Part shown: positions 2,286 to 58,181 of the stretch, piece after piece
Numbering within the stretch: the first letter of the stretch is position 1
How the letters are laid out: each line of letters begins with the position of its first letter
Assembly (NCBI GenBank): GCA_029261055.1
Contig: JAJDCA010000066.1
Coordinates: 157-64,156, forward strand
Direction of reading: 5' to 3'
Origin: Candidatus Omnitrophota bacterium
Lineage (GTDB): Bacteria > Omnitrophota > Gorgyraeia > Zapsychrales > Zapsychraceae
Length of the DNA: 64,000 nt
The notes under the pieces: model-generated
Databases searched by the model: none
The model's input: the letters and a program-made list of their open reading frames with translations, nothing else
What the model was told of the DNA's origin: nothing
Translations under genes and position numbers: made by a program

Positions 2286-3188
2286 ATGCTATCAATATCT
2301 ACATCCTGGATGAGCAACCCTGAGCTGGGTATGAAACATTGGTTGAAACAAGTCAAAGACCTTGGCATTAATGCCGTTGAGCTCAGCTACAAACTATCCG
2401 TTGCACAACTCAATGAAATAGAAGAGGGCATCAAGGAACTCGACATGCACGTATCCAGCATTCACAATTTCTGCCCTTCACCCAACGATGAAATCTCACC
2501 AAGACATCTGTCTAATTATTACCGTCTATCATCTACAGACGAACACGAACGCCAGCAAGCCATCAAATGGACCAACATTGCCGTGGACACCGCCCAACGT
2601 GTTGGGGCAAAAGTAGTCGTCATTCACGCCGGAACACTCGATTTTGAAGATGAACGCTCCCCGGAATTATTTAAATTATATGTCGATGGACAAAAAGACA
2701 CCGACGCCTTCCGTGACGAACGCCAACGCATCTTAACAGTACGTCAAGAAAAAAAAGGCCCGTATATTCAAGCCCTGGAAAAAAGTTTAGACGAAGTCGT
2801 GGCCCACGCACGATCAAAAAATATTAAAATCGGTCTGGAAACACGCTATTACCCCATCGAAATCCCAAACTTTGAGGAAGTCGGCTTTTTCCTAAAGAAA
2901 TTTGATGCTGATGTAATGGGCTATTGGCACGACGTCGGCCACGCCGAAATGAACGATCGCCTCGGCATCACATCCCATTTAGACTTTTTAGAAACCTACA
3001 AAGACCGCCTCATCGGCGTCCACATCCACGGCATCAAGGGCCGAAGAGACCACCTAGCCCCGTTTGAGGGAGAGATGGACTTAAACAAATTCTTACCCTA
3101 CTTCAAACCAAATATCATCCGCGTCATCGAATCCAAACCCTTTGCGTCCGAAGAATTAATCAAAGCAGCGGTAGGGAAGTTAAAATAA
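2286..3188 (+). CDS. sugar phosphate isomerase/epimerase (xylose-isomerase-like TIM barrel)
   Basis: 300 aa. Pattern of conserved His/Asp/Glu positions (VVIHAG, GLETRYYP, WHDVGHAE, GVHIHG) typical of the AP_endonuc_2/xylose isomerase-like fold. Confidence 0.6.
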   Translation: MLSISTSWMSNPELGMKHWLKQVKDLGINAVELSYKLSVAQLNEIEEGIKELDMHVSSIHNFCPSPNDEISPRHLSNYYRLSSTDEHERQQAIKWTNIAVDTAQRVGAKVVVIHAGTLDFEDERSPELFKLYVDGQKDTDAFRDERQRILTVRQEKKGPYIQALEKSLDEVVAHARSKNIKIGLETRYYPIEIPNFEEVGFFLKKFDADVMGYWHDVGHAEMNDRLGITSHLDFLETYKDRLIGVHIHGIKGRRDHLAPFEGEMDLNKFLPYFKPNIIRVIESKPFASEELIKAAVGKLK

Positions 3189-4068: not shown

Positions 4069-4117
4069 CTATAAATTAAATATGGGTTGTCTACTAGTAG
4101 ACAACCCATATTTAATT
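4069..4117. terminator. perfect 24/24-bp inverted repeat (taaattaaatatgggttgtctact|agtagacaacccatatttaattta); candidate terminator or operator
   Basis: Exact self-complementarity read from the sequence, located downstream of the tiny K-rich ORF. Confidence 0.45.
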
Positions 4118-4168
4118 TACTGATTACCCTTAGGAAAATATATATTTTTAAGAAAGATGTGATTAATA

Positions 4169-4328: not shown

Positions 4329-5525
4329 ATGATAAAAGCGCTAGCAAAAATAAGTGTTCTCCATGTCGCGACGCTAAATAGACCAATCAGGCAAGACTTG
4401 GGTTATGGTCCTATTGAAACGGTTATTTATAATATTGATAAAGGACTGCATAAATTAGGACAGCGTTCGATTGTTGCTTGTTCCGGTGATTCGTGTGTTG
4501 ACGGTGAACACTACACCACTATTGAAAAAAGTTTTAGTGAATATCACAGTAAAGACACGCGTATGCAGCGAGACAATATGCGTAAACATCTTCTTATGTC
4601 TCTTGAAAGAGCAAAAAAAGGCGACATTGATATTATCCATATGCATGACTCTGCCATGGTTGAATATATTTTTAAAGGAATTTTTAAAAGTCCTGTTCCT
4701 ATTGTGATGACGCTTCATGTTCCTGCCGAAGATAAAGGATCATTTCAACGTTGGAATGAATCGCTGCTTGCTTCTTCTGCCGCATATTTTGTTCCCATCA
4801 GTGAATATCAGAAAAAACAACATCAGGGCTTAGTCAACGCACAGAAGGTTATTCATCACGGTGTTGATGTGGCAGACTATCCGTACAAAAGTAATATTCG
4901 GAAATACGATTATTTGTTTTCAATCGGAAGAATCACCCAGGATAAAGGGCAGGATAAAGCTATTAAGATTGCAAAAAAAACAGGTTCGCGGCTTATCCTT
5001 GCCGGGAATATTCAGAACAAAGCAAAAGACCGGGCATTCTTTAAGGAATTGGAAAAATCAATTGACCTTGTGACGGACGTAAGCAAACCTTGTGCCCCGG
5101 ACGAGTATTATGAAAAAGTCATGAAACCCATTTTAGACTCAGACAATCAGATTATCTATATCGGCGAAGTTACTAGTGAGCAAAAGAAGTTGTGGTACAG
5201 TCACGCCCGAGCGACACTCTTTACTATTCAATGGGGCGAACCTTTTGGGCTTGTTTTGATAGAATCTATGGCTTGCGGAACCCCAGTGCTCGCATTCAAT
5301 AAAGGCTCGGTTCCCGAAATTGTTGTTCATGGTAAAACAGGATTTGTTGAGGACTCAATGGATGGCATGATTGAGGCTGTTAGGTCAATTCAGCTTATAA
5401 AATCCAAGGATTGTCGTAATCACATTAAAAATAATTTTTCAATTACGAGTATGGCTGAAAAATATTCCAAGTTATATCAGCAAATTATGGATGAAAGGAC
5501 GTCATGCCTAAAGATATCCCAGTAA
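4329..5525 (+). CDS. glycosyltransferase family 4 (GT-B, group 1)
   Basis: 398 aa. C-terminal EPFGLVLIESMACGTPVLAFNKGSVPEIVVHGKTGFV is the GT4 retaining-transferase signature. Confidence 0.8.
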   Translation: MIKALAKISVLHVATLNRPIRQDLGYGPIETVIYNIDKGLHKLGQRSIVACSGDSCVDGEHYTTIEKSFSEYHSKDTRMQRDNMRKHLLMSLERAKKGDIDIIHMHDSAMVEYIFKGIFKSPVPIVMTLHVPAEDKGSFQRWNESLLASSAAYFVPISEYQKKQHQGLVNAQKVIHHGVDVADYPYKSNIRKYDYLFSIGRITQDKGQDKAIKIAKKTGSRLILAGNIQNKAKDRAFFKELEKSIDLVTDVSKPCAPDEYYEKVMKPILDSDNQIIYIGEVTSEQKKLWYSHARATLFTIQWGEPFGLVLIESMACGTPVLAFNKGSVPEIVVHGKTGFVEDSMDGMIEAVRSIQLIKSKDCRNHIKNNFSITSMAEKYSKLYQQIMDERTSCLKISQ

Positions 5526-7489: not shown

Positions 7490-8119
7490 ATGCATTCAGA
7501 CGAAGCGGTGTTTGATCGATGCAGTCAACATATTTCTAACGATAATTATTCCGTCATTGATCAATTCTTAACTTCCGAGGAAGTATCGGATATTTTGGTT
7601 GGCGTGGAGAATAAATATTCTCAAGACAAATTTAAAAAAGCAGGGGTTGGACAAAATGATGATTACAACAACACTTCTCAAGTGAGAGGAGATTTGATTT
7701 ATTGGATTGATTCTCAAAAAGTGTTTGAACTTAAACGACGATTTCTTCCATATCTTAATAAGTTTATAACCCATTTAAATCAAAAGTGTTTTTTGTCGAT
7801 TAAAGATTACGAAATGCATTATTCTGTGTATCCAAAAGGAACGTATTATAAGCGACATCTGGATCAATTCAAAAAGGATGATAATCGCGTTCTTACATTC
7901 ATTTGTTATTTAAATTTTGATTGGAGAAAAGGTGATGGAGGCGATTTACGGCTTTATACCAATCAAAAAAATACCGATGCTCAATATATAGATATCTTGC
8001 CTGAAGCAGGCCGTTTTGTTTGTTTTAAAAGTGATGTTTTAGAGCATGAAGTTTTAGTCACAAACAAAACACGATATAGTTTGACTGGATGGATGCTAAC
8101 ACGCGCCATGGATTCGTAA
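7490..8119 (+). CDS. 2OG-Fe(II) oxygenase, prolyl-4-hydroxylase-like
   Basis: 209 aa. H-x-D (KRHLDQF) ... H (LEHEV) iron triad and P4Hc-like core (LTFICYLN...GGDLRLY...GRFVCF). Confidence 0.7.
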   Translation: MHSDEAVFDRCSQHISNDNYSVIDQFLTSEEVSDILVGVENKYSQDKFKKAGVGQNDDYNNTSQVRGDLIYWIDSQKVFELKRRFLPYLNKFITHLNQKCFLSIKDYEMHYSVYPKGTYYKRHLDQFKKDDNRVLTFICYLNFDWRKGDGGDLRLYTNQKNTDAQYIDILPEAGRFVCFKSDVLEHEVLVTNKTRYSLTGWMLTRAMDS

Positions 8120-8394
8120 TGATTAAAATTCTGGGGTGGAAATAATCGTGTCGTTTCTCATAACTCAATATATCACAAGTATTTTTGAGTAATTAATGTA
8201 AACCGTGGCAAATTTTGAATTAACGATATCTTTCGCTTTTTGATAAAGTTGTCGCCATGTCCCGAGTGTAATGCCCCATTAATTACCGATATTCCAACTA
8301 CCTCAAAAACTCCACCCCGAAGAAAAAATTATTCCGGAAATAAAAATTTTACTTTTCATTCAACTTTTTAAATGTTATGATTTCAACTAATATT

Positions 8395-8471
8395 GCGCCT
8401 GTAGCTCAGCTGGATAGAGCACCTGCCTTCGGAGCAGGGTGTCGGGGGTTCGAATCCTCCCAGGCGCGCCA
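8395..8471 (+). tRNA. tRNA-Arg (anticodon TCG)
   Basis: Manual fold: acceptor GCGCCTG/CAGGCGC, D-arm GCTC-AGCTGGATA-GAGC, anticodon stem CCTGC/GCAGG with loop CTTCGGA, T-arm GGGGG-TTCGAAT-CCTCC, encoded CCA. Body is nearly identical to E. coli tRNA-Arg. Confidence 0.8.
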
Positions 8472-8624
8472 GTCTTCGCCAAAGAGCTTTCGCATTTGGC
8501 TTCGTCTGGCTTTGCCTGATATAAGTAAAATCGCTGCGGCAAGAATGAATTCGTATCAACGGAAAAATCCTGGCGAAAATACTTTGATCATTTCAATTAT
8601 GCCTGTAGGCTAAATCACTAAAAA

Positions 8625-9719
8625 ATGCAAGCAACTCTTCAAAAAACTCCACTCTATGACAATCACACATCACTCGACGCGCGTATCGTGGAGTTTGGTG
8701 GCTGGGCGATGCCGGTGCAGTATGACGGTATTCTGGCGGAATATAAACAGACACGAACACACACGGCATTATTTGATATTTCTCATATGGGAGAATTTAT
8801 TATGGAAGGGGATTGTGTAGAAATCGGTTTAGATCGTCTTGTCACATCAGCCATTGCTGATATGCCGATTAAATCCTGCCGATATGGCGCTATGCTGAAT
8901 GAACAAGGAGGGGTATTGGATGACCTCATTGTTTTTCGTATCGAAAAAGAAAAATGGTTTATCGTGGTCAATGCCTCGACGACAGAAAAGGATGCACAAC
9001 ATATTCAAAAACACCTTAAGCCAGGCACAACCTTCCAAGATGTTTCTTTAAAAACAGGGAAAATTGATATTCAAGGGCCGTTAGCTCGCGAAGTCCTTAG
9101 CCCTTTAGCTCCGGGCATCGAAAAACTAAACTTCTACACATTTGATCATTTTGATTTATTAGGACAACATGTTCTTATCAGCCGCACCGGATACACCGGC
9201 GAACTCGGCTATGAAATTTATTTCCCGTGGGAACACACGCCGGAACTTTGGCAAAAACTTTTAGAACACAAACACGTCAAACCGGCAGGCCTGGGAGCAC
9301 GTGATCTTCTTCGTCTTGAAGTCGGATATAGCCTGTACGGACACGAACTTGATGAAAACACTTCGGTGTTAGAATCCGGGCTTAATCGTTTTATTGATTT
9401 TAAAAAAAATTTTTTCGGTAAGGAATCTCTTTTAAAACAAAAAGAGTCAGGGTTAAAAAGAAAACTGATTGGATTTATAGCTGATTCTCGTCGATCTCCA
9501 CGGCAAGGACATAAAATTTATTCCGAATCTCAAGACGAAATAGGGGAGGTCACCAGCGGTTCCTTTTCACCCCATTTGCAAAAAGGAATCGGTTTGGGTT
9601 TTGTCTTGACTGAAGAAGGCATCCGTGATAAAAAAATTTTCTTTGGCAATGACAAAAATAAAATACCCGCTATAATTACGCCAAAAATATTTTATAAAAA
9701 CGGATCATTAAAAGATTGA
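8625..9719 (+). CDS. gcvT: glycine cleavage system T protein (aminomethyltransferase)
   Basis: 364 aa. Typical GcvT N-terminus (TPLYDNH...ARIVEFGGWAMPVQY) and domain layout. First gene of gcvT-H-PA-PB. Confidence 0.9.
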   Translation: MQATLQKTPLYDNHTSLDARIVEFGGWAMPVQYDGILAEYKQTRTHTALFDISHMGEFIMEGDCVEIGLDRLVTSAIADMPIKSCRYGAMLNEQGGVLDDLIVFRIEKEKWFIVVNASTTEKDAQHIQKHLKPGTTFQDVSLKTGKIDIQGPLAREVLSPLAPGIEKLNFYTFDHFDLLGQHVLISRTGYTGELGYEIYFPWEHTPELWQKLLEHKHVKPAGLGARDLLRLEVGYSLYGHELDENTSVLESGLNRFIDFKKNFFGKESLLKQKESGLKRKLIGFIADSRRSPRQGHKIYSESQDEIGEVTSGSFSPHLQKGIGLGFVLTEEGIRDKKIFFGNDKNKIPAIITPKIFYKNGSLKD

Positions 9720-9734
9720 ACTGGGAGAACGCAC

Positions 9735-10121
9735 ATGGAAATTATTGATCATTATCTTTATACCAAAGAACATGAATGGATTAACATTGAAGAAAATCAA
9801 GGTACCATTGGCATTTCAGAATATGCTCAGAGCTCATTAGGCGACATTACGTTTGTTGAATTACCGGCTGCTGATGACGAATTTGATCAAGCCGCTCAAT
9901 TTGCTTCCGTGGAATCCGTGAAAGCTGCTAGCGATATTTATTCACCAATGTCTGGAAAAATTATTGAAGTTAATGAAGATTTAGTCGAAGAACCAGAACT
10001 CATCAATAAATCAGCTTATGAAAACGGTTGGATTGCAAAAATAAAGCTTGCCGATCTCAGTGAGACCGAAGATCTTATGACGGCGGATGATTACCGTAAA
10101 TTTTTAGAAAGTATCGTCTAG
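9735..10121 (+). CDS. gcvH: glycine cleavage system H protein
   Basis: 128 aa. Lipoyl-lysine motif region ESVKAASDIYSPMSG and the Y.KEHEW N-terminus. Confidence 0.9.
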   Translation: MEIIDHYLYTKEHEWINIEENQGTIGISEYAQSSLGDITFVELPAADDEFDQAAQFASVESVKAASDIYSPMSGKIIEVNEDLVEEPELINKSAYENGWIAKIKLADLSETEDLMTADDYRKFLESIV

Positions 10122-10122
10122 T

Positions 10123-11463
10123 TTGAATCCCTACATCGCTAACACAAAAAACGACACAAAAGATATGCTGAAGGTCATTGGTGTAAATACCATCGATGAC
10201 CTTTTTGCCGATATACAACCTCACCAAAAGCCTAAGTCTTTTGATCTGCCAAACGGCCTATCTGAGTTTGAAGTCATCGAAAAAATTAAACGTATCGCCG
10301 AAAAAAATACGACCAACCTTATTTCGTTTTTAGGGGGAGGGTATTACGACCATTATGTGCCCGCCGCTGTAACAGCGCTCATTTCTCGAGGAGAATTTTC
10401 CACGGCGTATACGCCGTATCAGCCGGAATGTTCTCAAGGCACACTACAAGCCTTGTACGAATATCAAAGTGCTATTTGTACTTTAACTGAAATGGATGTG
10501 GCCAATGCATCACTCTACGACGGAGGGACAGCCCTTTACGAAGCGATTATGATGGCTATTCGTATTACACGACGAAAAAAAATTGTTATGGACGGCGGCG
10601 TAAGTCCTATCTATCGAAAAATTATCCATAGCTATACAAATAACTTAAATATTGAATTCAAAGAAACCCCTGTTGTGCATGGCCAAAGCGACCGCGATCA
10701 AATCAACAATCTCCTCGACAAAGACACAGCGGCCATTATTTTGCAAAACCCCAATTTCTTTGGTACCATTGATGATCATTCTGACATTATCCAAAAAGCA
10801 CATGAACAAGGTATATTAGTTATTGAAAGTGTTTATCCTGTTTCCCTGGGCATTGTCAAAACACCGGGCGAAATGGGGGTGGACATTGTCACCGGCGAAG
10901 GGCAAAGCCTGGGATTACCGCTTAATTTTGGCGGACCTTATCTTGGATTCATGTCCACGCGTAAAAAATATATCCGGAAAATGCCGGGACGTATTGTCGG
11001 TAAAACAATCGATAGCAGCGGAAAATCATGTTTTGTAAATACCTTGCAGGCACGGGAACAACATATCCGACGAGAAAAAGCGACCTCCAATATTTGCACG
11101 AATGTTTCTCTGTGTGCTGTACAATCTCTCATATATATGTCCTTATTGGGTAAACAAGGATTTGTTAATTTATCTCAACTCAATTTAGATAAAGCTGAAT
11201 TTATGCGCAAAACACTGGAAACGATAGAAGGGGTCGAGGTTAAACGCAGCTCCCCAACATTTAATGAATTCACCGTACGCCTTGCCAAAGAAGCGTCTGT
11301 CGTTATTAACGCTATGATTGAAAAAGGATTTGCCGCGGGCTTCCCGTTAGGACGCTATTATAAAGGAATGGAAAACTATATGATCGTGGCGGTGACCGAA
11401 AAACGAACCAAAGAAGAAATATTAAAATATGCGGAATGCTTGAAGGAAATTTTATCCCAATGA
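10123..11463 (+). CDS. gcvPA: glycine dehydrogenase (decarboxylating) subunit 1
   Basis: 446 aa. N-terminal half of a split P-protein (YTPYQPE, SQGTLQA motifs). Confidence 0.9.
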   Translation: MNPYIANTKNDTKDMLKVIGVNTIDDLFADIQPHQKPKSFDLPNGLSEFEVIEKIKRIAEKNTTNLISFLGGGYYDHYVPAAVTALISRGEFSTAYTPYQPECSQGTLQALYEYQSAICTLTEMDVANASLYDGGTALYEAIMMAIRITRRKKIVMDGGVSPIYRKIIHSYTNNLNIEFKETPVVHGQSDRDQINNLLDKDTAAIILQNPNFFGTIDDHSDIIQKAHEQGILVIESVYPVSLGIVKTPGEMGVDIVTGEGQSLGLPLNFGGPYLGFMSTRKKYIRKMPGRIVGKTIDSSGKSCFVNTLQAREQHIRREKATSNICTNVSLCAVQSLIYMSLLGKQGFVNLSQLNLDKAEFMRKTLETIEGVEVKRSSPTFNEFTVRLAKEASVVINAMIEKGFAAGFPLGRYYKGMENYMIVAVTEKRTKEEILKYAECLKEILSQ

Positions 11464-12911
11464 AACTCATATTTGAAAAAAGTGTAGAAGGTCGGCAAGG
11501 TTTTGGAATCCCTCAATCAGATGTCGGCCCGCAAGAGGGCATCCCCGAAAAATATAAAAGGGAAAAGCCTGCTTGCTTTCCTGAAGCTTCTGAACTTGAT
11601 ATTGTCCGTCATTTTACCGACTTAGCCCATAAAAATTTTTCCATTGATACGCATTTTTATCCTTTGGGGTCGTGTACAATGAAATACAATCCTAAATTTG
11701 CCGATGTTGTTACACAAATTCCAGGATTTGCTAATTTACATCCTCTTTTACCGCAATTAACCAAAGGAGAAACACTATCCCAAGGGGCCATTGAAGTACT
11801 TTATGAAACAGAACAATGGCTGTGTGAAATGACAGGAATGGATCATTTTACCATGCAACCTTTAGCCGGCGCGCATGGAGAATTGACCGGTGTTATGATG
11901 ATGGCAGCCTATCATAAAGCCAAAGGCAATCAAAAAACCCATATTATTGTTCCGGATTCTTCCCATGGAACCAATCCGGCCACAGCCGCCATTGCCGGAT
12001 ATAATATCGTAGCAGTCCCATCCGATGAAAACGGGGTTATGAATATGGAAGAATTAGCCAAGCGTATTACCGATGAAACAGCCGGTCTTATGTTAACGTG
12101 TCCCAATACACACGGTATCTTTAATTCTAATATTGATAAAATCGCCAAAATGATTCACGCCGTCGATGGCATTATGTATTATGATGGCGCCAATCTCAAT
12201 GCTATTTTAGGACGCTGCCGTCCAGGAGATATTGGCTTTGATGTCATTCATATTAATGTGCATAAAACATTTGCCACACCGCACGGAGGGGGTGGTCCTG
12301 GAGCAGGTCCTGTGGGCGTGACAAAAAAATTGGAGCCTTATTTACCCATTTCCCGCGTTGTCAAACATGAAAATGGCCAATTTGGACTCGATTACGATTA
12401 TCCACATTCCATAGGTTATGTGGCCCCTTTTTATGGTAATTTTGGAATTATTTTGCGCGCCTATGCGTATATGCTGATGTTAGGCCAAGAGGGCCTTAAA
12501 CAAACAAGTAATCATGCCGTTTTGAATGCCAATTATATTAAGGAACGTTTAAAAGAACATTATGCTTTGGCGTATGACCATATATGCATGCATGAATCCG
12601 TTTTTTCTGCATCCCTACAAGCTCAAAGAGGTGTACACGCGATCGACATTGCCAAATTTTTAATTGATAAAAACATCCATCCTCCAACCATTTATTTTCC
12701 CTTAACTGTTAAAGAGGCCATTATGATTGAACCAACAGAAACAGAGTCCAAAGAAACGCTGGATGAATTTATTGAAACCATGATTGAAGCTGATTCTTTA
12801 AGTAAAACTGATCCCGATAGCTTTCACAACTGCCCACAATCCACTCCGATTAACCGCCCTGATGAAGTCAAAGCTGCCAAAGAGATGAATACGAATTATT
12901 TTGCATCATGA
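11460..12911 (+). CDS. gcvPB: glycine dehydrogenase (decarboxylating) subunit 2
   Basis: PLP-lysine region NVHKTFATPHGGGGPGAGP. I chose the ATG at 11460 (ATGA overlap with the gcvPA stop, N-terminus MKLIFEKS) over the in-frame upstream ATG at 11436. Confidence 0.9.
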   Translation: MKLIFEKSVEGRQGFGIPQSDVGPQEGIPEKYKREKPACFPEASELDIVRHFTDLAHKNFSIDTHFYPLGSCTMKYNPKFADVVTQIPGFANLHPLLPQLTKGETLSQGAIEVLYETEQWLCEMTGMDHFTMQPLAGAHGELTGVMMMAAYHKAKGNQKTHIIVPDSSHGTNPATAAIAGYNIVAVPSDENGVMNMEELAKRITDETAGLMLTCPNTHGIFNSNIDKIAKMIHAVDGIMYYDGANLNAILGRCRPGDIGFDVIHINVHKTFATPHGGGGPGAGPVGVTKKLEPYLPISRVVKHENGQFGLDYDYPHSIGYVAPFYGNFGIILRAYAYMLMLGQEGLKQTSNHAVLNANYIKERLKEHYALAYDHICMHESVFSASLQAQRGVHAIDIAKFLIDKNIHPPTIYFPLTVKEAIMIEPTETESKETLDEFIETMIEADSLSKTDPDSFHNCPQSTPINRPDEVKAAKEMNTNYFAS

Positions 12912-13615
12912 TTCTCAAAGACATTTCATTTTCAACTCCTCACGAAAATATCGCCTATGATGATACCCTTTTGAAATTGGCTGAAGAAGGGCAAGAGGGA
13001 GAGGTTCTACGATTTTGGGAATCGCCCGAAATGTTCGTTGTCCTGGGACGTATTTCCAAAGAAGAAGAGGATGTCGATAAAGAAGCCGTTACACGCGATA
13101 ATATCCCCATTTTACGCCGCTCTTCAGGAGGAGGCACTGTTTTACAAGGCCCCGGATGCCTCAATTATACGTTAATCTTATCCAAAAAATGCCGCCCAGA
13201 AGTGGCTGATTTAAAAAAATCGTATCAATATATTCTTAATAAAATCATCGCCGCCTTAGAAACCCTGGGTGTAGAGGCCTTTTTTCACCCCATATCAGAC
13301 ATAACCGTAAACAGACCCCGGGGGTCTGTTTCAACGGTTCAAACCAAAACAGACCCCCGGGGTCTGTTTACGGTTCCATTAAAAATATCAGGAAACGCCC
13401 AAAAAAGAGGACGAAACTATATTTTGCATCATGGAACCATTCTGTATGACTTTAACCTTAAAAATATCGAAAAATATCTTAAAATACCTAAAAGCATACC
13501 CGAATATCGGGAAAAACGTCCTCATCTGGACTTTGTAACGAATATCGCACTTTCAGTCACAAGTCTTAAACAAGAGGTTCAAAAACAATTTGATCAATCT
13601 GATGAAAAAAATTGA
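12908..13615 (+). CDS. lipoate-protein ligase / octanoyltransferase family (BPL_LplA_LipB catalytic domain)
   Basis: 235 aa. RRSSGGGTVLQGPG and K-ISGNAQKR (catalytic Lys) motifs. Last gene of the gcv operon, overlapping the gcvPB stop. Contains an in-frame palindromic insertion (see repeat at 13305-13373). Confidence 0.7.
   Translation: MILKDISFSTPHENIAYDDTLLKLAEEGQEGEVLRFWESPEMFVVLGRISKEEEDVDKEAVTRDNIPILRRSSGGGTVLQGPGCLNYTLILSKKCRPEVADLKKSYQYILNKIIAALETLGVEAFFHPISDITVNRPRGSVSTVQTKTDPRGLFTVPLKISGNAQKRGRNYILHHGTILYDFNLKNIEKYLKIPKSIPEYREKRPHLDFVTNIALSVTSLKQEVQKQFDQSDEKN
13305..13373. repeat. 69-bp compound palindromic element inserted in frame inside the lipoate-ligase CDS
   Basis: ccgtaaacagaccccgggggtctgtttcaacggttcaaaccaaaacagacccccggggtctgtttacgg. 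The unit aaacagacccc|ggggtctgttt occurs twice and is self-complementary. 23 codons, no stop. Encodes NRPRGSVSTVQTKTDPRGLFTVP just before the catalytic K-ISGNAQ motif. Confidence 0.5.
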
Positions 13616-13942
13616 TTTAGAAATGAAAATATTTATCAATATTTTCTCTAAAAACAAACAAAACCTGCCCCAATCTGAGAAATTATGAAGTCTCTCTGAT
13701 TCCGATTCAAGAATACCCATTACAAATTTTTCTGACAATTTCTAAATCCCCCCCTCTTTGCGCAGAATTAGAAAAAAATTTCAAATAATTTTTTATTATA
13801 CGCATAACCATATGTTATTACTATAGTTAAAATTTATAAAGAATATTTCCTCGGTGGCAATTTACCCCTTCAATATGTTATATTTATTATACGTTGAAGA
13901 AAAGACTTTCTTCCTTTCTAAATATAGCAAAAAATCAAAAAA

Positions 13943-13957
13943 ATCGCCTACGCTGAT
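13943..13957. promoter_or_regulatory. near-palindromic operator-like site ATCGCCTACGCTGAT, 33 nt upstream of the giant-protein-1 start
   Basis: Near-identical (22/24 nt) to the motif aaaatcgcctacggcgataacc at 38558-38579 upstream of the histone-like gene. Confidence 0.35.
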
Positions 13958-13989
13958 AACCAAAATTACAGTACAGGAGAAAATAAGCC

Positions 13990-16900
13990 ATGCATATTTA
14001 CACAACAAAAAAACGATCAAATTTAATGTATCGAATCCTCTCAGCATTTATTGCAATAGTATTTTTAAGCACCACTATTGTGCCGCGAGGGTATACCCAA
14101 ACAGTGGTTTTACCAACAGCCACTATACTTAATTTACCTGTGCCGGGTACGATGGTAGGCATAACCGAAGGTTTTACACCTGCGATTATCAAAGGAATGA
14201 CGATTCATCCGGATAATCCTTTGGAATTTGATTTTATTGTGGGCCGCGGTGATAAAAATTTACAAGGAGATGATTTAAAAAAAGAAGGCATCAAAATAAT
14301 CAAATATTTTCTGGCTGCACTGACAACTCCTAAAGAGGACATGTGGGTAAACCTTTCCCCGTATGAAAAGAATCGTATTATTGCCGAAGGATTCGGACAA
14401 ACTGAAATGGGAGGAGATCTTTTATCTCAAGACTATCTTTTAAAACAGCTGACATCGTCATTAATGTATCCGGAAGATGAATTAGGCGGTGATTTTTGGG
14501 AAAAAGTGCATAAAAAAGCCTATGAACAGTTCGGAACAACCGATATTCCCATGAATACTTTTAATAAAATCTGGATTGTTCCAGAAAATGCCATGGTATA
14601 TGAGCATGAATCAAGCGCATTCGTAGTAGGCCGGCATTTAAAAGTGATGTTGGAGCAGGATTTTGTAGCTATGGATCATCAAAATTCTGGCATGCAAGGC
14701 ATAAAATTTGAGGTTACGACTGACAATATTGAACGAAAAAGCACGATAACTACGGAATTAATTCGTGAAATCCTTATCCCTGAGATTGAACGCGAGGTCA
14801 ATGAAGGTGAAAACTTTGCCAATTTACGTCAAATTTATAATTCTATGATTTTGGCTACATGGTATAAGCAAAACTTGAAAGAAAGTTTATTAGGACAAGT
14901 ATATATTGATAAAAATAAAATATTAGGCGTCGATGTGGAAGATAAAGATATCAAACATAAAATTTACAATCAATATATCCAGGCATTCAAAAAGGGCGTT
15001 TATAACTATATTAAGGAGGATTATGATTCTGTAACACATCAGGTCATTCCACGAAAATATTTTTCCGGAGGAACTTTATGGGTAAACGAAATTTCAGAAG
15101 TGGATAATTTAGAGGGCATTAACCTTAAACCTAAAATGATTCCTAATAAAACAGATGCTTCAATATTAACAAGTATTGTAGATGCAGGAGATGGTGCGGA
15201 TACGATTTATATTGAAGAAGTGATGAATCAATATGATGGCTCAATGTTAACCGTTCAGAGTGAGCTGGTTAGATTGAGAAATGATTTACCTTTAAATTTT
15301 TCTGGTAATTCGGATGAAATCATGGAAATTAAGAACTGGCCAAAGGTGGAACAGACAGTGAAAAACATCTCTGATGCTACCAAACAACTAATTCTTTTAT
15401 CAACAGTAAAAAATAACCTTTTTCGAGAATCAGTTCAAAAAGAAGTAGGTTTTATTTATGCCATTGCTTATTTCAGACAGCTTCTTCCGAATGATAAAAA
15501 GAAAGTTATAGAGGATTTTAATACATTGGGCCATAAGAATACTGCTGCGTGGTTAATGGAGAATAACAATTTGCATCTTGATGAATTAAAAGCCAAAATT
15601 CAGGACAAATTTGAAATTAATCTTAATCAAGAAACGGTAGAGTATATCAAAATGCATGATGAAACGGTGCGTCGATCAAGGGGGTTACGCTTAGCGGCAG
15701 ATTCTTTGAAAATATCTACCAGTGATCTTGATGTGATTTTCAAAAATCAAAGTTTGCTTGATGTTATTTTGGGATTACGCAAAGGAGCTGTTGTTGAAAT
15801 CCGACAACCTTTAAACAATTTAGAAAAAGTGCTACGACGGCTAAGATTGGCTGAAGGAGAGGCTATTCAATTTGTTCATCTTGGAAAAAATCAATATTAC
15901 GTCTATGAAGAACATCAGCTGAAACGGTTGGCGCAGGACAATGATTTAAATTATGGATTACACAGGAGTGGACTAAACCATTTGATCCAATTGGATATGG
16001 CAAAAAAACAAGGTATATTTTTTGAAGAAGCAAATAAAACAATTAATACAGATGCCCAAAAGAATATACATAGAATAAGCAGTTCCATCACTCTTTCAGA
16101 TACAAATAGAACTATGTATTTTGACGAAAAAGAAAAATTTTGGCGTGCTGATAAAACAGCCTCCCAGATTTTTGAAATTGAAAGAGTGGGAGCAGAACGA
16201 TCATATATTGCAACTATTCAAAGGGCAAAAGGATTTAAAAATGTTTTAGAATCCCAACTTGAAAATTTTTTAATATTTAATGTACAAACCCCAATCACCG
16301 TTATTGATGATTCTAACGAAACTGAACTTGAAATTAATATAAAGACAGTTAAAGAGTTTCAAAAAAAATATCAAATAGAAATTAAACATATAACAAAAAA
16401 AGAATGGGATGAAGAGTATGGATATTATGCAAAATATTTAAAGAAAACTTGGGAACAACAGCTAAATCAAGAAGTTTTACCTAACACTATTAAAGAATTT
16501 CTTTTAGAGACTGAAATTTTGCAAAAAAATATAATTAATGATGAAAAAATAGTCGAAGTCCTGCGTAGTCCAGAATTTTATCATACGTCCGGATTTCGAA
16601 ACAGACAATTTCTGATGGCTGTAGGGGAACCGATTATCCATGGATGGGATGACGATGCCCCTGCACATGTTTACGCGGTGACCGATAAAAAACGCGATCA
16701 ACTTCGCGAAGATGCCTTAAATGACAAAAAACCAATTATGCAGAACATGTTTCAAAAAGTTGGAAAAATGATTAACACAACCATTAAAAGTGAAAAAGCG
16801 TTCTATAAAGAACTCGCTAAGAACGATAATTATGACAACCCTAAAATCAAAGAGATTCTTGACAACTATTTTGGTTATGACCCCCAAGATGATCATAAAG

Positions 16901-18765
16901 GCTTAATTCCTCAAGCAGCAGAAGAAATAATTACATTGGAAAACAAAATGGATGGCATTAATCCTTATTCTGTCCAGAGGTATTCTCCTTTTATGCGAAA
17001 ATTCATTCCAAAACAAGCTCTTAGGATGGGAGACAATTATTCCCATAAACCTAGGATAAGTGATGATAAAGAAAATACATGTTGTATCATTATGCCGGCT
17101 AATCACCTGGGGCATTCCAGACGTGTTGGGCAAAGAATAGGGGATACTAATTTCTTCCTTGGGCAGGTTCCTTATAGGGGATTACTTAATACGCCTACAA
17201 ATAAAAATGAATCAAATGATTTAAAAGATCGCACTACCCATTTTCTGGGGCATGATTTTAATAATGACATCGATACGCAGGCCGGCAAACATTTGGAAGC
17301 TTATATTAATTCAGATGATCATCATATGAAACACATACAGCATACACATCAATCTGTTCTTTTGGTTGAGGGAGCTTTTGGTTTTGCTTCACTTCTTGGG
17401 TATCCTGTTTTTAATCGTAATTCAATGTTTGTGGGCGATTTTCCTCTGCCATCTTTGGGTGGACCGCTGCGTATTGAAGAACCCAAGATGTATCGATGGG
17501 TCGTCGGCCCATTGTTACTTAACACGGTAGCAGCTGCTAATGATAATATTGCAGGCGGACAAAAGCGTCATTTAGAAAATCGATTATATCGCAATTCTTA
17601 CCAAGACCTTACCGAAGTTGTGGGAGGGAACATTGCGGGTGATTTTTACGAAGCGGCCAAAGAGAAATATTACAAAATACTTCCAGAGAAATACAAAAAA
17701 GATTTATGGGGAGATTTATATAATCGACTTATCGTTTTAGCGAATGTTTTTCTTGAAGCTGGGACTGAAGTTAATTTAACAACCAAGCATAAAGAAAAGG
17801 CCTTAGAAGAACGTCAATTGAGAGCCCAATCCATTTCACGATTAGCATTAAAACGAAGCAAGAAAGTTATTAAATTAGAGAAAAATCCAGATGAAAATTT
17901 AAAACAGGAGATAAAAGATATTGATTTAATGATTCTCGACTATGCCGATCATTTTGGTTATTACGCTCCACAAAATACTAAAAATAAAAATTATAATCCG
18001 ATAAATCCTGAAGAAGATTATTTTTATAAAATCAAGGTTGATGGAAATTATTTAAAATGGCAAGCGGTATATCCTGATATGGAAGTCGCTGATCAGAATG
18101 GAGTTTCTTCAGTCAAGAGCAGTGAATGGAAAAATTTGCAAAAAAAATCAGGTGAAACCCGACTAAGTAATTGGGTAAAAGGAGAAACTATTTCTTTAGA
18201 AAATGGCCGGTCCATTCTTTTAGACGAACTGCCAGATAACGATATTGAAATAATTGTACCGGGCTTACGCTCCGACCTTGAAAAAGAATATTTAAAAGAA
18301 GTTCAACAAATTATTATAAAACAGCTTAAAGCCGATGGTAATCAAATGATTATCTGGCCAGATATGGTTGCAGCCGCTAAGCAAAGAAAAAAAGATTCCG
18401 CCATGGCAACAAAAAATGTAAAAAATAACCTTACTTTTAATACAAAACAGACTATAAATGAAGTCGGTGGTATCGATCTTAATCCTGATTTATTAAATTT
18501 ACAAATCAAACGTGATGGAAATGGCGTGCCGTTACCAGTAGCGATGCAGCCTATTGAAAATATGCATATTGAAGGGTTTTTCCCTATTATTATCAATATT
18601 ACACCTGTCAATCTTCCACTTCTTGGTTTTGGAGACACTCTTCCGAAAGAAAACTATCCCAAACCATCACCTGAACTCAGCTTTTGGGAAGAACAAGAGA
18701 GAAAAGCTTTTCTGAGAAGTAAATTAGGTGATAGAAATACACAACTAATACAAGAAAACACCTAA
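13990..18765 (+). CDS. giant secreted protein (1591 aa) with a conserved N-terminal domain of unknown function; paralog of 53880-57287
   Basis: Uninterrupted 4.8-kb ORF with a signal-peptide-like N-terminus (MYRILSAFIAIVFLSTTIV). The first ~350 aa are ~55-60% identical to the N-terminus of the 1135-aa protein at 53880 (LNLPVPGTMV...IKG...DPL.FDF; WVNLSPYE.NRII...GQTEMG.DLL.QDYLLKQLT.SLMYPE.ELG; IPRKYFSGG). The rest is unique and carries no domain I recognise. Confidence 0.7.
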   Translation: MHIYTTKKRSNLMYRILSAFIAIVFLSTTIVPRGYTQTVVLPTATILNLPVPGTMVGITEGFTPAIIKGMTIHPDNPLEFDFIVGRGDKNLQGDDLKKEGIKIIKYFLAALTTPKEDMWVNLSPYEKNRIIAEGFGQTEMGGDLLSQDYLLKQLTSSLMYPEDELGGDFWEKVHKKAYEQFGTTDIPMNTFNKIWIVPENAMVYEHESSAFVVGRHLKVMLEQDFVAMDHQNSGMQGIKFEVTTDNIERKSTITTELIREILIPEIEREVNEGENFANLRQIYNSMILATWYKQNLKESLLGQVYIDKNKILGVDVEDKDIKHKIYNQYIQAFKKGVYNYIKEDYDSVTHQVIPRKYFSGGTLWVNEISEVDNLEGINLKPKMIPNKTDASILTSIVDAGDGADTIYIEEVMNQYDGSMLTVQSELVRLRNDLPLNFSGNSDEIMEIKNWPKVEQTVKNISDATKQLILLSTVKNNLFRESVQKEVGFIYAIAYFRQLLPNDKKKVIEDFNTLGHKNTAAWLMENNNLHLDELKAKIQDKFEINLNQETVEYIKMHDETVRRSRGLRLAADSLKISTSDLDVIFKNQSLLDVILGLRKGAVVEIRQPLNNLEKVLRRLRLAEGEAIQFVHLGKNQYYVYEEHQLKRLAQDNDLNYGLHRSGLNHLIQLDMAKKQGIFFEEANKTINTDAQKNIHRISSSITLSDTNRTMYFDEKEKFWRADKTASQIFEIERVGAERSYIATIQRAKGFKNVLESQLENFLIFNVQTPITVIDDSNETELEINIKTVKEFQKKYQIEIKHITKKEWDEEYGYYAKYLKKTWEQQLNQEVLPNTIKEFLLETEILQKNIINDEKIVEVLRSPEFYHTSGFRNRQFLMAVGEPIIHGWDDDAPAHVYAVTDKKRDQLREDALNDKKPIMQNMFQKVGKMINTTIKSEKAFYKELAKNDNYDNPKIKEILDNYFGYDPQDDHKGLIPQAAEEIITLENKMDGINPYSVQRYSPFMRKFIPKQALRMGDNYSHKPRISDDKENTCCIIMPANHLGHSRRVGQRIGDTNFFLGQVPYRGLLNTPTNKNESNDLKDRTTHFLGHDFNNDIDTQAGKHLEAYINSDDHHMKHIQHTHQSVLLVEGAFGFASLLGYPVFNRNSMFVGDFPLPSLGGPLRIEEPKMYRWVVGPLLLNTVAAANDNIAGGQKRHLENRLYRNSYQDLTEVVGGNIAGDFYEAAKEKYYKILPEKYKKDLWGDLYNRLIVLANVFLEAGTEVNLTTKHKEKALEERQLRAQSISRLALKRSKKVIKLEKNPDENLKQEIKDIDLMILDYADHFGYYAPQNTKNKNYNPINPEEDYFYKIKVDGNYLKWQAVYPDMEVADQNGVSSVKSSEWKNLQKKSGETRLSNWVKGETISLENGRSILLDELPDNDIEIIVPGLRSDLEKEYLKEVQQIIIKQLKADGNQMIIWPDMVAAAKQRKKDSAMATKNVKNNLTFNTKQTINEVGGIDLNPDLLNLQIKRDGNGVPLPVAMQPIENMHIEGFFPIIINITPVNLPLLGFGDTLPKENYPKPSPELSFWEEQERKAFLRSKLGDRNTQLIQENT

Positions 18766-18775
18766 TAAAAAAACA

Positions 18776-18803
18776 TTGACATTTTCTAAAAAAGTGATAT
18801 ATT
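18776..18803 (+). promoter_or_regulatory. sigma70-like promoter (TTGACA, 16-nt spacer, TATATT) for rplM-rpsI
   Basis: Read from sequence. The -35 plus spacer (ttgacattttctaaaaaag) is almost identical to the promoter at 42202. Confidence 0.5.
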
Positions 18804-18833
18804 TACGGTTCATCTTTTACGAGGAGAGTTTAA

Positions 18834-19268
18834 ATGATACAAAAAACATACATGGCCAAGGCATCTGAAATAGAACGTAAGTGTTATATTATTGATGCCA
18901 AAGATAAAATTTTAGGACGTATTGCTGCCAAGGCGGCTACTATTTTGCGTGGTAAACATAAAGCCATTTATACACCACATGTGGATACAGGTGACATGGT
19001 TGTGATTATTAATGCGGAGAAAGTCAAAGTTACAGGTAAAAAGTTGGAACAAAAAGAATATCAACGCTACTCTGGTTATCCTTCAGGACAAAAATCTGTC
19101 AAGCTGAGTGTTATGTTAGAAAAAGCCCCGACACGAGTACTACGTCTTGCTATAAACCGTATGATTCCAAGCGGTCCATTAGGAAATCAAGTCAAAACAA
19201 AATTAAAAATTTATGCTGGGGACCAACATCCTCATCAAGCACAAAAACCGATTGCTTTAGCGGTTTAA
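18834..19268 (+). CDS. rplM: 50S ribosomal protein L13
   Basis: ILGRIAAKAATILRGKHKAIYTPHVDTGD is diagnostic of L13. The true start could be the ATG at 18852 (MAKASE...). Confidence 0.9.
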   Translation: MIQKTYMAKASEIERKCYIIDAKDKILGRIAAKAATILRGKHKAIYTPHVDTGDMVVIINAEKVKVTGKKLEQKEYQRYSGYPSGQKSVKLSVMLEKAPTRVLRLAINRMIPSGPLGNQVKTKLKIYAGDQHPHQAQKPIALAV

Positions 19269-19291
19269 TCTAATTTAAGGAGTTTGATCAC

Positions 19292-19687
19292 ATGGTTGAA
19301 ACAGTAAAATACGGAGCTACCGGACGTCGAAAATCTTCTATTGCCCGCGTCAATTTAATTCCTGGTGAAGGAACTATTCGTGTTAATAAACGCACATTCG
19401 AAAATTATTTTCCGCGTGAGACAGACCGTATTACCATTTTAAAACCTCTTAACCTCACCAATACGCTTGGAAAATTTAATATTGAAGCTAAAGTTTCTGG
19501 TGGTGGAAGCACTGGCCAAACAGGAGCTCTTTGCTTAGGAATTTCCCGCGCTTTAGCTTTATGTGATCCTGAAAATAAACCTGTCCTCAAAAAAGCCACT
19601 CTTCTAAGACGCGATCCCAGAATGAAAGAAAGACAAAAGCCCGGTCAAAAGGGAGCGCGAAAGAAATTCCAGTGGGTTAAACGATAA
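19292..19687 (+). CDS. rpsI: 30S ribosomal protein S9
   Basis: 131 aa. YGATGRRKSSIARV N-terminus and the ...FQWVKR C-terminus typical of S9. Confidence 0.9.
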   Translation: MVETVKYGATGRRKSSIARVNLIPGEGTIRVNKRTFENYFPRETDRITILKPLNLTNTLGKFNIEAKVSGGGSTGQTGALCLGISRALALCDPENKPVLKKATLLRRDPRMKERQKPGQKGARKKFQWVKR

Positions 19688-19744
19688 CGGTTGGATATTT
19701 CTGAACGTATCGTTCAGAATTACTCACCACACATTTCAGTAATA

Positions 19745-19797
19745 AAAAGCCTATCTCCCTTTGAAAAACAATTGACGAGATAGGCTTTTTATTTTAT
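19745..19797 (+). terminator. Rho-independent terminator after rpsI
   Basis: 13-bp stem aaaagcctatctc / gagataggctttt followed by a T-run. Confidence 0.55.
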
Positions 19798-19830
19798 TAT
19801 GATTTCTAATTATTTGTCGTGGAGGATTTT

Positions 19831-20850
19831 ATGATTAAAACAGGTATAGTTGGGATTAGTGGTTATTCCGGAGGCATACTTCTAGAAATTTTATTGAAGC
19901 ACCCTCAAGTGCGCGTCACTTATGTAAGTGCCAATAATACGCACGGAAAAGTGGACACCATCTGGCCACAAGTGGCGGGATACACTAATCTTACATGTGA
20001 AAAATTTGATGTAAAAAAAGCAGCTAAACATTGTGATTTTATATTTTTAGCTGTGCCGCACACCATTGCTATGCAAGTCACGCCAGGCTTGTTAAAAGCC
20101 GGACTTCGTGTCATTGATTTAAGCGGCGATTATCGCCTTAATTCTATTCAACAATATAAAAAATGGTACGGAGCTGCACATACAGATGCCAAAAATATTA
20201 AAAAAGCGGTCTATGGGTTACCCGAGCTTTACCGTGAAAATATCAAAAAGGCCAACCTCATTGCTAATCCAGGGTGTTATCCAACAGCTGCTTTACTAGG
20301 CTTAATACCTTTAACTTCTACGCATGCCACGGCTATTCAATCTATTATTATCGATGCAAAATCAGGCGTCACAGGGGCAGGACGTAAAGCTAAACTACAA
20401 CTCAATTTTTCTGAAATAAACGAAAATTTTAAAGCGTACAAAGTTTTAAATCACCAACATGTCCCGGAAATGGAATTATATTTATCTAAAATATCTAAAG
20501 AAAAATTCACGATCAACTTTGTCCCACATTTATTACCAGTAAACCGCGGCATTTTAGAAACTATCTATGTACAAGTGAATAAATGTTTACCCTTAAAAGA
20601 TATTCATAAAATTTATACACGTTTTTATAAAACAGAACCTTTTGTACGCATTCTTCCATTAGGACAACAACCGGAATTAAATAATGTTACAAAAAATAAT
20701 TATTGTGATATCGGCCTGGCAACAGATGCAACCAATCAACTCTTGGTCATCACATCTGTCATTGACAATCTAATGAAGGGCGCTGCAGGCCAAGCCGTGC
20801 AAAATATGAATATCATGTGTGGATTTGACGAAAAAGAAGGATTACATTAA
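19831..20850 (+). CDS. argC: N-acetyl-gamma-glutamyl-phosphate reductase
   Basis: Catalytic-Cys motif GCYPTAALLGLIPL. Start placed at the ATG at 19831 behind a GGAGGA RBS. The ORF-track start at 19819 is a GTG. Confidence 0.9.
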   Translation: MIKTGIVGISGYSGGILLEILLKHPQVRVTYVSANNTHGKVDTIWPQVAGYTNLTCEKFDVKKAAKHCDFIFLAVPHTIAMQVTPGLLKAGLRVIDLSGDYRLNSIQQYKKWYGAAHTDAKNIKKAVYGLPELYRENIKKANLIANPGCYPTAALLGLIPLTSTHATAIQSIIIDAKSGVTGAGRKAKLQLNFSEINENFKAYKVLNHQHVPEMELYLSKISKEKFTINFVPHLLPVNRGILETIYVQVNKCLPLKDIHKIYTRFYKTEPFVRILPLGQQPELNNVTKNNYCDIGLATDATNQLLVITSVIDNLMKGAAGQAVQNMNIMCGFDEKEGLH

Positions 20851-20852
20851 AA

Positions 20853-21995
20853 ATGAAAATCATAAAAGGTGGAATAACACAACCTCAAGGCTTTAAATCT
20901 AACGGTATTGCCTGTGGGCTTAAAAAATCTGGAAAACTGGATCTCGGATTAATTACCAGCGATATTCCCGCAGTGTCATCTGCTGTATTCACAAAGAGTT
21001 CCATTAAAGCGGCTCCGTTGCTCGTGTGTCAAGAACACATTCGCAATCATATAACCCAGGCTATTGTTATTAATAGTGGTAATGCTAATTGTTTTACAGG
21101 AAAACAAGGCCTTGCTTGCGCTCAAAAGACCACGGAATTAATTGGCAAAAAACTCGCGATTCCTCACGAAGATGTCCTTGTCGCCTCTACAGGTATTATT
21201 GGAAAACAATTATCTTTTACAAAAATTCAAGATGGCGCCAAAAAGTTAATTAAAGGATTAAGTCCTCACGGGGCAGATAAAACCGCTCGCGCGATTTTAA
21301 CAACAGACATTACAACCAAAGAAATCACTGTTGAAATCACCTTAAGCGGCAAAAAAGTAACGATCGGTGCTTGCGCCAAAGGTTCAGGAATGATTGCCCC
21401 GAACATGGCGACCATGTTGGCGTTTATCACCACCGATGCCGCTATTAGTGCAAAAATGCTGAATACAGCCCTTAAAAGTGCGTCCGATCAATCCTTCAAT
21501 TGTATTTCTGTAGACGGATGCATGAGCACCAATGATATGGTTTCAGTAATGGCCAATGGATTGGCCAAAAATAAGAAAATTACAACGGCGAATAAAGATT
21601 ATAAAACATTCTGCAATGCCCTCAATCATGTCTGCCTTGATTTAGCTAAAAAAATTGTCTTAGATGGAGAGGGCGCCACAAAATTTATTGAAATCCAAGT
21701 TGTCGGCGCAAAAAACTATAAGCAGGCTCAAGAAGTTGGCTTAAAAGTCGCCAACTCAAATCTTGTTAAAACCGCCGCTTACGGCAATAATCCTAACTGG
21801 GGACGCGTCGCCGCTGCCGTAGGTTCCGTAGGAATTAAAGAAGTTACCGAAAATAAAATCAAATTCAAATTCAGCCCGTTCACACGAAAACATATTATCA
21901 TCCATATTAATCTTAATATCGGTGCGCACAAAGCCGTCGTCTACACCTCAGATTTATCTTATAAATACGTAAAAATTAATGTGGAGTACACCTAA
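20853..21995 (+). CDS. argJ: bifunctional ornithine acetyltransferase / N-acetylglutamate synthase
   Basis: 380 aa. ATMLAFITTDA self-cleavage site region typical of ArgJ. Confidence 0.9.
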   Translation: MKIIKGGITQPQGFKSNGIACGLKKSGKLDLGLITSDIPAVSSAVFTKSSIKAAPLLVCQEHIRNHITQAIVINSGNANCFTGKQGLACAQKTTELIGKKLAIPHEDVLVASTGIIGKQLSFTKIQDGAKKLIKGLSPHGADKTARAILTTDITTKEITVEITLSGKKVTIGACAKGSGMIAPNMATMLAFITTDAAISAKMLNTALKSASDQSFNCISVDGCMSTNDMVSVMANGLAKNKKITTANKDYKTFCNALNHVCLDLAKKIVLDGEGATKFIEIQVVGAKNYKQAQEVGLKVANSNLVKTAAYGNNPNWGRVAAAVGSVGIKEVTENKIKFKFSPFTRKHIIIHINLNIGAHKAVVYTSDLSYKYVKINVEYT

Positions 21996-58121: not shown

Positions 58122-58181
58122 CTTTTTCCTCCCATCTGCGATAAATAAGTGTAGGATAAAACAGACAACCGGAGGGAAATA

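Follow-up and report, generated by a model that had tools for sequence, protein, structure and literature searches.

How does a perfect inverted repeat come to lie within the reading frame of an enzyme gene and leave that frame open? The question is raised by a stretch of 64,000 nt from a Candidatus Omnitrophota bacterium (contig JAJDCA010000066.1; hereafter the window), in which a 73-nt palindromic doublet is embedded in an lplA-like gene, the last of a cluster of glycine-cleavage (gcv) genes. An earlier note, made from the sequence alone, had described a palindromic element inserted in frame at this place. Our analysis supports a true insertion, built from two units of a repeat that also occurs in another Omnitrophota genome, and it probably resembles the doublets of repetitive extragenic palindromic (REP) sequences known as REPINs.

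An inverted palindromic doublet in the lplA-like gene

The complete element spans 13303..13375 (73 nt, no strand assigned). A repeat search delimits two arms of 29 nt each, 13303-13331 and 13347-13375, which are 100% complementary (29/29) and flank a 15-nt spacer (13332..13346, no strand assigned; CAACGGTTCAAACCA). It is the longest perfect inverted repeat of the window. The palindrome is thus doubled as a larger inverted repeat inside the coding sequence, as the earlier note had claimed, and its extent, given there as 69 bp (13305-13373), becomes 73 nt. Both arms share a 23-nt core, AAACAGACCCC[G/C]GGGGTCTGTTT. Core palindrome 1 (13309..13331; AAACAGACCCCGGGGGTCTGTTT) reads AAACAGACCCC-G-GGGGTCTGTTT and core palindrome 2 (13347..13369; AAACAGACCCCCGGGGTCTGTTT) reads AAACAGACCCC-C-GGGGTCTGTTT, each with an 11+1+11 structure and no assigned strand. 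When the 64 kb were searched for the 23-mer with up to three mismatches, two sites were found, both inside the element, and none of 100 dinucleotide-preserving shuffles of the window contained a match to the pattern. Half-sites of the core occur nowhere else in these 64 kb, which bears out the statement that the window holds no second copy.

Each core belongs to a larger unit of ~35 nt, with the consensus aACCnT-AAACAGACCCC-S-GGGGTCTGTTT-n-GGTT and an ACC/GGT outer stem broken by bulges of 1-2 nt. Unit 1 (13303..13339, + strand), which was aligned with the copies from another genome described below, consists of AACCGT, the core with a central G, and CAACGGTT; its outer stem is AACCGT/ACGGTT. 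Unit 2 (13342..13375, - strand) has as its reverse complement AACCGT, the core with a central G, and TGGTT. We class it as inverted, not direct, because its central base is C where unit 1 has G and because the AACCGT flank is identical. The inner halves of both units' outer stems lie in the spacer.

The element can fold in two ways, as a single long hairpin or as two short hairpins, and the minimum-free-energy fold is the single long hairpin. Its energy is -59 kcal/mol (z = -11.9) for RNA and -37 kcal/mol (z = -10.8) for DNA; in either case 0 of 200 shuffles equalled it. There is no U-tract 3' of the hairpin. Its GC content is 53%, against 39% in the rest of the gene. Two of the six reading frames of the element are free of stop codons, and all three reverse-strand frames are stopped in or next to the spacer. 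The copy in the window lies in frame and without a stop codon in the open reading frame (ORF) 12908..13615(+), which remains open throughout, again in agreement with the earlier note.

The element is an insertion relative to orthologues

To place the element in the protein, we used an alignment of 120 sequences, i.e., the window protein and its 119 closest homologues. D131 and K159 are invariant in it. The gap between them counts 8 residues in 118 of the 119 homologues, 10 in the remaining one, and 27 in the window protein; in solved LplA structures, ~4 residues join the two flanks. This amounts to a net gain of 19 codons (57 nt), where 23 had been proposed. At the protein level, the insert corresponds to codons T133-L158 (26 residues; 13304..13381, + strand) and replaces seven orthologue residues (A-L-x-x-N-x-K). 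In solved LplA structures, the counterpart of the K159 codon (13382..13384, + strand) is the lysine of the motif K-V/I-S-G-N/S-A, which we take to be catalytic (K133 of E. coli LplA). The loop preceding this lysine is indeed the site of insertion, as the earlier note had it, but the element does not directly abut K-ISGNAQ, since P157 and L158 stand between them.

The residues at the edges of the insert are atypical. T133 corresponds to A in 114 of 118 homologues, L158 to K in 96 of 118, and P157 falls in a column that is otherwise polar. In orthologues the DNA of this site (gat att gcc ctt act aaa aat cag aag aag ata) is without anything palindrome-like and without a seed palindrome; with 60-66% identity, its divergence is too great for the junctions to be fixed exactly. 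Because of these edge residues and of the absence of a palindrome in orthologue DNA, the comparison suggests that the element overwrote about five ancestral loop codons.

In summary, the alignment supports a genuine insertion in the loop preceding the K-ISGNAQ lysine, one that no close orthologue shares. The alternative is that this is an ordinary lineage-specific loop and that its palindromic character is coincidental, in which case relatives might have been expected to carry an ordinary segment of the same length. Loop length does vary, given the homologue with 10 residues instead of 8. However, the other 118 have exactly 8, no shuffle of the window produced the pattern, the folding z-score is far from that of random sequence, and the core recurs in a second genome. 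We regard this alternative as effectively refuted.

The repeat recurs in a second Omnitrophota genome

We scanned one genome for each of 185,579 species, a set of representatives from which the source genome of the window is absent, for the exact 21-mer AACAGACCCCSGGGGTCTGTT. It was found in three places, all in the metagenome-assembled genome (MAG) Candidatus Omnitrophota bacterium CSMAG_1994. These three exact copies are single, intergenic units; two of them follow a short uvrC and mnmG, respectively, and the third directly adjoins the stop codon of a gene of the PEBP family. A diverged fourth copy, AAACGGACTCC-C-GGGGTCCGTTT, is also intergenic, just upstream of uvrC; the identical A-to-G change is present in both of its arms, so that the stem is kept. 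In an alignment of six units, those of the window and those of CSMAG_1994 have in common a left flank of ACCnT and a right flank of GG(G/T)T, both of which lie outside the search pattern. Since the core recurs there with similar flanks, we assign the window element to a repeat family: judged by this alignment, it is two full units of the CSMAG_1994 family in inverted orientation.

The surroundings of these copies deserve a brief description. The short uvrC (413 aa, with GIY-YIG, UVR and RNase H domains) is bracketed by two family copies, at 4743-4790 and 6067-6097 of contig DAOWGP010000112.1, and an extra half-site, GGGACAGACCCC, precedes the upstream one. A BLASTP comparison of the ORFs of CSMAG_1994 and of the metagenome loci mentioned below with those of the window revealed no shared genes.

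The 21-mer was also matched by eight contigs, representing four distinct loci, in metagenomes of the Joint Genome Institute (JGI), which we rejected as family members. In these loci the 21-mer forms the top of a long A-tract/T-tract hairpin, with unrelated AAAA.../...TTTT flanks and without ACCnT/GGTT, placed after genes in unrelated low-GC or other contigs. They look like ordinary terminators whose stem is common by chance. In one of them, Ga0209719_1005304, a stretch of ~600 nt (7500-8170) downstream of an HU-like gene looks non-coding, has internal repeats and ends in the terminator hairpin that contains the 21-mer. It is kept in four metagenome samples and may be a structured RNA gene. The element had no match among viral contigs, plasmids or phages. 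No Rfam family scored above its gathering threshold, and the generic miRNA-precursor-like hairpins that matched did so far below it.

These data bear on the possibility that the doublet arose locally and without mobility, by template switching or snap-back synthesis at a small quasi-palindrome, its similarity to the CSMAG_1994 repeats being a case of convergence. The arms are exact reverse complements, including the AACCGT/ACGGTT that can be read as host codons T133-V134; no target-site duplication or transposase was found; and unrelated terminator hairpins with the identical 21-mer do exist in metagenomes. However, orthologue DNA offers no seed palindrome at the site, and the core is GC-rich and foreign to the gene. 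Moreover, the only matches among the genomes of 185,579 species are three copies in a MAG of the same phylum, which share flank bases that were not searched for. We thus find a local origin distinctly improbable for the element as a whole, even if template switching could be the source of the doubling of a single unit.

Authenticity of the sequence

The region was also recovered in the Logan assembly of run SRR15505515, which is identical to the window over 15,224 nt (8392-23615, 0 mismatches). Exact look-ups of GcvPB and GcvH place the source organism in this run alone, and the two assemblies therefore probably share reads. This leaves some room for an artefact of assembly or of the library, for instance a chimera or a hairpin molecule, to which we nevertheless attach a very small probability. 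Two assemblers produced identical sequences over 15.2 kb, the insert is in frame and free of stop codons, and palindromes usually break or collapse assemblies instead of arising de novo. Two further arguments against an artefact are that the core, as its GC content indicates, was not derived from neighbouring sequence and that a repeat in an independent genome, obtained in another study, matches it.

The host gene and the consequences of the insertion

The host gene (12908..13615, + strand) encodes a protein of 235 aa with an LplA/LipB-type lipoyl/octanoyl protein ligase catalytic domain (PF21948, E = 1.1e-41). The protein matches solved lipoate-protein ligase structures in the PDB, and it has both the RRxSGGG motif (as RRSSGGG) and the K-x-S-G-x-A motif (as KISGNAQ). 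Its closest homologues are 57-66% identical, and those that bear a source name are labelled Omnitrophica or Omnitrophota. The NCBIfam lipoate-protein ligase models match as well, every one of them below its cut-off. Fold and motifs thus class it as an LplA/LipB-type enzyme, a ligase or an octanoyltransferase. The gene closes a gcvT-gcvH-gcvPA-gcvPB cluster (8625..12911, + strand; gcvT 8625-9719, gcvH 9735-10121, gcvPA 10123-11463, gcvPB 11436-12911) whose order matches that of relatives, and its start overlaps the stop of gcvPB by 4 nt. No glycine riboswitch or other Rfam family reached the gathering score upstream of the operon. A tRNA gene lies at 8395-8468, ~155 nt upstream of gcvT.

We modelled the protein with AlphaFold, using the alignment of 120 sequences. 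The mean predicted local distance difference test score (pLDDT) is 88.4. It mostly exceeds 90 in the core and falls below 50 at residues 140-150 and 152-154, and no secondary structure is assigned between the strands 131-134 and 161-167. The model thus presents the insert as a disordered loop of low confidence on a confidently predicted ligase core. In Foldseek searches the predicted model matches LplA catalytic domains, with a TMq of 0.72-0.75 for the LplA of T. acidophilum. Conservation outside the insert points in the same direction: among the 82 columns conserved at ≥90%, the window protein departs from the consensus only once (A133T, at the edge of the element), for a median of two departures in the other homologues. 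This supports an enzyme that is functional or was only recently altered, and we infer that it continues to function.

The insertion may nevertheless have a cost in expression. CGG, which ranks second-rarest among the six codons for Arg (7.7% of them), appears twice in the insert, as does CCC, for Pro the rarest codon. Given these rare codons and a hairpin of -59 kcal/mol within the coding region, lower or paused translation of lplA is plausible, and both may have side effects on lplA expression.

How the element may have arrived and persisted

The reading we favour, and to which we give somewhat better than even chances, is that a REP/REPIN-like doublet entered a tolerant beta-hairpin turn and survived by keeping the frame. 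Its likeness to REPINs follows from its composition of two inverted short palindromes and a spacer that together form a hairpin (PMC3337134). One doublet would have integrated into the beta-hairpin turn that precedes the catalytic lysine of an LplA-type ligase, overwriting about five loop codons for a net gain of 19. It would have persisted because the copy fell in one of the two frames, out of six, that lack stop codons and because an unstructured extension is tolerated at this turn. An open in-frame copy would be a one-in-three outcome, subsequently retained by selection, and the element would accordingly be a survivor of selection, not a sequence adapted to coding DNA. Its mobility, which we infer by analogy, would probably depend on an enzyme acting in trans and recognising single-strand hairpins, as do the REP-associated tyrosine transposases (RAYTs) of REPINs. 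Alternatively, it could have been captured from an intergenic copy by recombination or repair.

Several observations weigh against this scenario. The first concern the site itself. A clear target-site duplication is missing: the flanks, ACAT and CCAT, have no more than CAT in common, offset by one base, and the sequence around the element (...GACAT | element | CCATTA...) shows neither a direct repeat of at least 4 nt nor a TA duplication. An element of 73 nt with a net gain of 57 nt obliges us to assume later remodelling or a deletion, which would be of ~16 nt at the insertion site. The databases contain no empty-site allele and no relative above 66% identity. Others concern the family. We found no transposase or RAYT (Y1_Tnp) in the 43 ORFs of the window or in the eight ORFs that adjoin the CSMAG_1994 copies, an absence that carries little weight for a single-copy gene. 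Copy number in CSMAG_1994 is small (three exact and one diverged, with exact 21-mers scanned), and the 64 kb of the source organism itself contain a single locus, an intragenic doublet.

The insert peptide provides a further point of this kind. When phmmer was used to compare the 30-aa insert with 1.84 billion representatives of 50%-identity clusters, in which insert-free representatives can mask members, no other protein with the peptide was found. Two matches, of 3943 aa and 2877 aa, were rejected as relatives, their scores being sums over tandem repeats of 16-17 matches of ~8 bits each. The peptide of the insert region (13301-13390; TVNRPRGSVSTVQTKTDPRGLFTVP) is ~50% identical to the repeat unit TVTQPDGSDSTVTVKTDQNGIATLPV of both of these giant proteins, which look like invasin-type adhesins, and we judged the matches to be a chance resemblance multiplied by the repeats.

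Finally, the host gene may be decaying or under relaxed selection instead of tolerating the insert. The protein ends 7 residues after F228, ~25 residues short of its homologues, which typically continue for 27-35. At the end of the frame (13613..13651, + strand), the TGA stop is followed by 11 in-frame codons, FRNENIYQYFL, and then by TAA. This peptide weakly resembles the tail motif ExxxLxxFL of orthologues and may be a remnant of their C-terminal tail of ~30 aa. We discarded a recoded UGA as the cause of the short C-terminus, TGA being the stop of 12 of the 43 window ORFs. The short C-terminus looks like a nonsense truncation, not recoding.

The shortened tail, with its possible remnant past an in-frame TGA, also fits a different explanation, in which the hairpin is under selection as an RNA element that determines where the gcvTHP transcript ends or how stable it is, or throttles translation of lplA, the reading frame being secondary and possibly decaying. 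The extreme stability of the RNA hairpin agrees with such a role, as do the position of the host gene at the end of the operon, the location of family copies at the 3' ends of genes in CSMAG_1994, and the perfection of the arms despite their location in coding sequence. Yet the frame is open and the protein deviates at one of 82 conserved columns, the hairpin is not followed by a U-tract, and a recent insertion would explain the perfect arms equally well. We consider this explanation rather improbable.

The favoured reading, of a doublet that survived in frame, could be extended in two directions, which even together seem unlikely to us. Omnitrophota might harbour an undescribed, active REPIN-like family that colonises coding sequence, as an instance outside Rickettsia of the loop evolution attributed to Rickettsia palindromic elements (RPEs); the identity of the 23-nt core between genomes of 38% and 46% GC would then imply a sequence-specific partner protein. 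Or the intragenic hairpin might have been co-opted to tune the lipoylation enzyme relative to the glycine-cleavage genes. All four copies in CSMAG_1994 are intergenic and lend no support there to an RPE-like invasion of coding sequence.

If the reading of an in-frame doublet holds, the locus offers a clean and well-delimited case, one more in a short list, of a palindromic repeat surviving as a surface loop in the gene of an essential-type enzyme. It would come from a poorly studied candidate phylum and involve REP-doublet architecture, which is normally strictly extragenic. It would also be a natural experiment on how far the loop beside the catalytic lysine of LplA tolerates insertion. The 21-mer AACAGACCCCSGGGGTCTGTT can serve as a probe for the family, and for its presumed mobilising enzyme, in Omnitrophota genomes. 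For annotation, the case illustrates that such inserts depress profile scores without signalling a pseudogene.

Other features of the window

A second palindrome, perfect over 48 bp and without a loop, is found at 4072-4119 (TAAATTAAATATGGGTTGTCTACT / AGTAGACAACCCATATTTAATTTA). It is intergenic, between ORFs 2286..3188 and 4329..5525, and unrelated in sequence to the element in the lplA-like gene. All 43 substantial ORFs of the window are on the + strand (630-64000), an extreme co-orientation over ~63 kb that includes xseA, the gcv operon, rplM/rpsI, arg, dap and pan genes, guaB/guaA and dnaE. Mobile-element genes were not found among these 43 ORFs. Three ORFs are giant: 13990-18765, directly downstream of the lplA-like gene, 53880-57287, and one that starts at 58155 and extends beyond 64000. 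No Pfam family matched the first two (1591 aa and 1135 aa); the third (>1948 aa) runs off the end of the window, in a region of higher GC content (0.46).

Comparison with known palindromic repeats

The earlier note had compared the element with RPEs and Correia-like elements. Part of the comparison stands, because the insertion is in frame and a repeat family does exist; however, RPEs and Correia elements are longer and unrelated in sequence, and a REP doublet is closer. Other classes could be set aside. The element lacks the GTTRRRY/RYYYAAC ends of an integron attC site and is not part of an array, as a CRISPR repeat would be. Its open frame makes translational bypass or an intron-like removal by splicing unnecessary. 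It shares with intrinsic terminators a stem whose 21-mer is also present in unrelated metagenome hairpins after genes, but it differs from them by its location in coding sequence, the missing U-tract and the ACCnT/GGTT flanks.

By definition, a REPIN is a pair of short palindromes, inverted relative to each other and separated by a spacer, that folds into a hairpin (PMC3337134), and REPs and REPINs were described in Pseudomonas and Enterobacteria (Bertels & Rainey 2011; PMC3337134, PMC3116915). Two hallmarks, the short palindromic unit and the inverted doublet that forms a hairpin, are present in the window. The unit is a short palindrome, like the imperfect ones of about 20-40 nt in REPs, with a core of 23 nt and ~35 nt including the outer stem. 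The units are inverted and separated by a short spacer, they form a near-perfect hairpin of a size within the REPIN range of about 70-90 nt, and a central asymmetric base marks their orientation. The single units of CSMAG_1994 are extragenic and located at the 3' ends of genes, like REPs. Classic REPs are mostly extragenic and occur in hundreds of copies per genome. RAYTs, which are Y1/HUH transposases, are encoded by a single-copy gene that is typically flanked by REPs. Intergenic REPs shield the mRNA upstream of them from 3' exonucleases or serve as points of processing or termination. The window copy differs in being intragenic and translated, its cores are perfect palindromes save for one central base, and the units number two in the window and three exact plus one diverged in CSMAG_1994. 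A literature query that combined 'Omnitrophota' with 'repetitive extragenic palindromic' found no paper.

Correia/NEMIS elements of Neisseria and MITEs (miniature transposable elements with inverted repeats) such as ERIC, RUP and BOX are likewise small non-autonomous repeats with inverted ends that can form hairpins in mRNA and are occasionally intragenic. Unlike the window element, they have terminal inverted repeats derived from insertion sequences (IS), a target-site duplication (TA for Correia) and a length of 100-400 bp. The window element has inverted ends like theirs; it consists of two copies of one short palindrome, and we found neither a duplication nor, in the window, an IS relative.

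The survival of small palindromic repeats in frame is documented for RPEs and some MITEs (PMC10969869), RPEs being palindromic elements in Rickettsia (Ogata et al. 2000, summarised in PMC10969869). As in RPEs, a palindromic repeat is found in frame in the gene of a housekeeping enzyme, where its peptide forms a loop and the fold is apparently kept. RPEs, however, are ~100-150 bp long and form families in Rickettsia with dozens of in-frame copies per genome and a conserved peptide, whereas the window element has 73 nt, one in-frame copy, two open frames of six, and a host in Omnitrophota. Repeated in-frame insertion with a conserved peptide was not found by phmmer among the cluster representatives. 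Size, host and Rfam all speak against membership of an RPE family, the RPE consensus having been compared by description only.

Taken together, these comparisons do not open a new class of biology. The element looks REPIN-like in architecture and RPE-like in outcome, which is a likeness and does not establish membership of either family. Its placement, translated and beside a catalytic residue, is unusual, and its palindromic insertion in frame adds a single instance to a phenomenon already known and does not amount to a new type of system.

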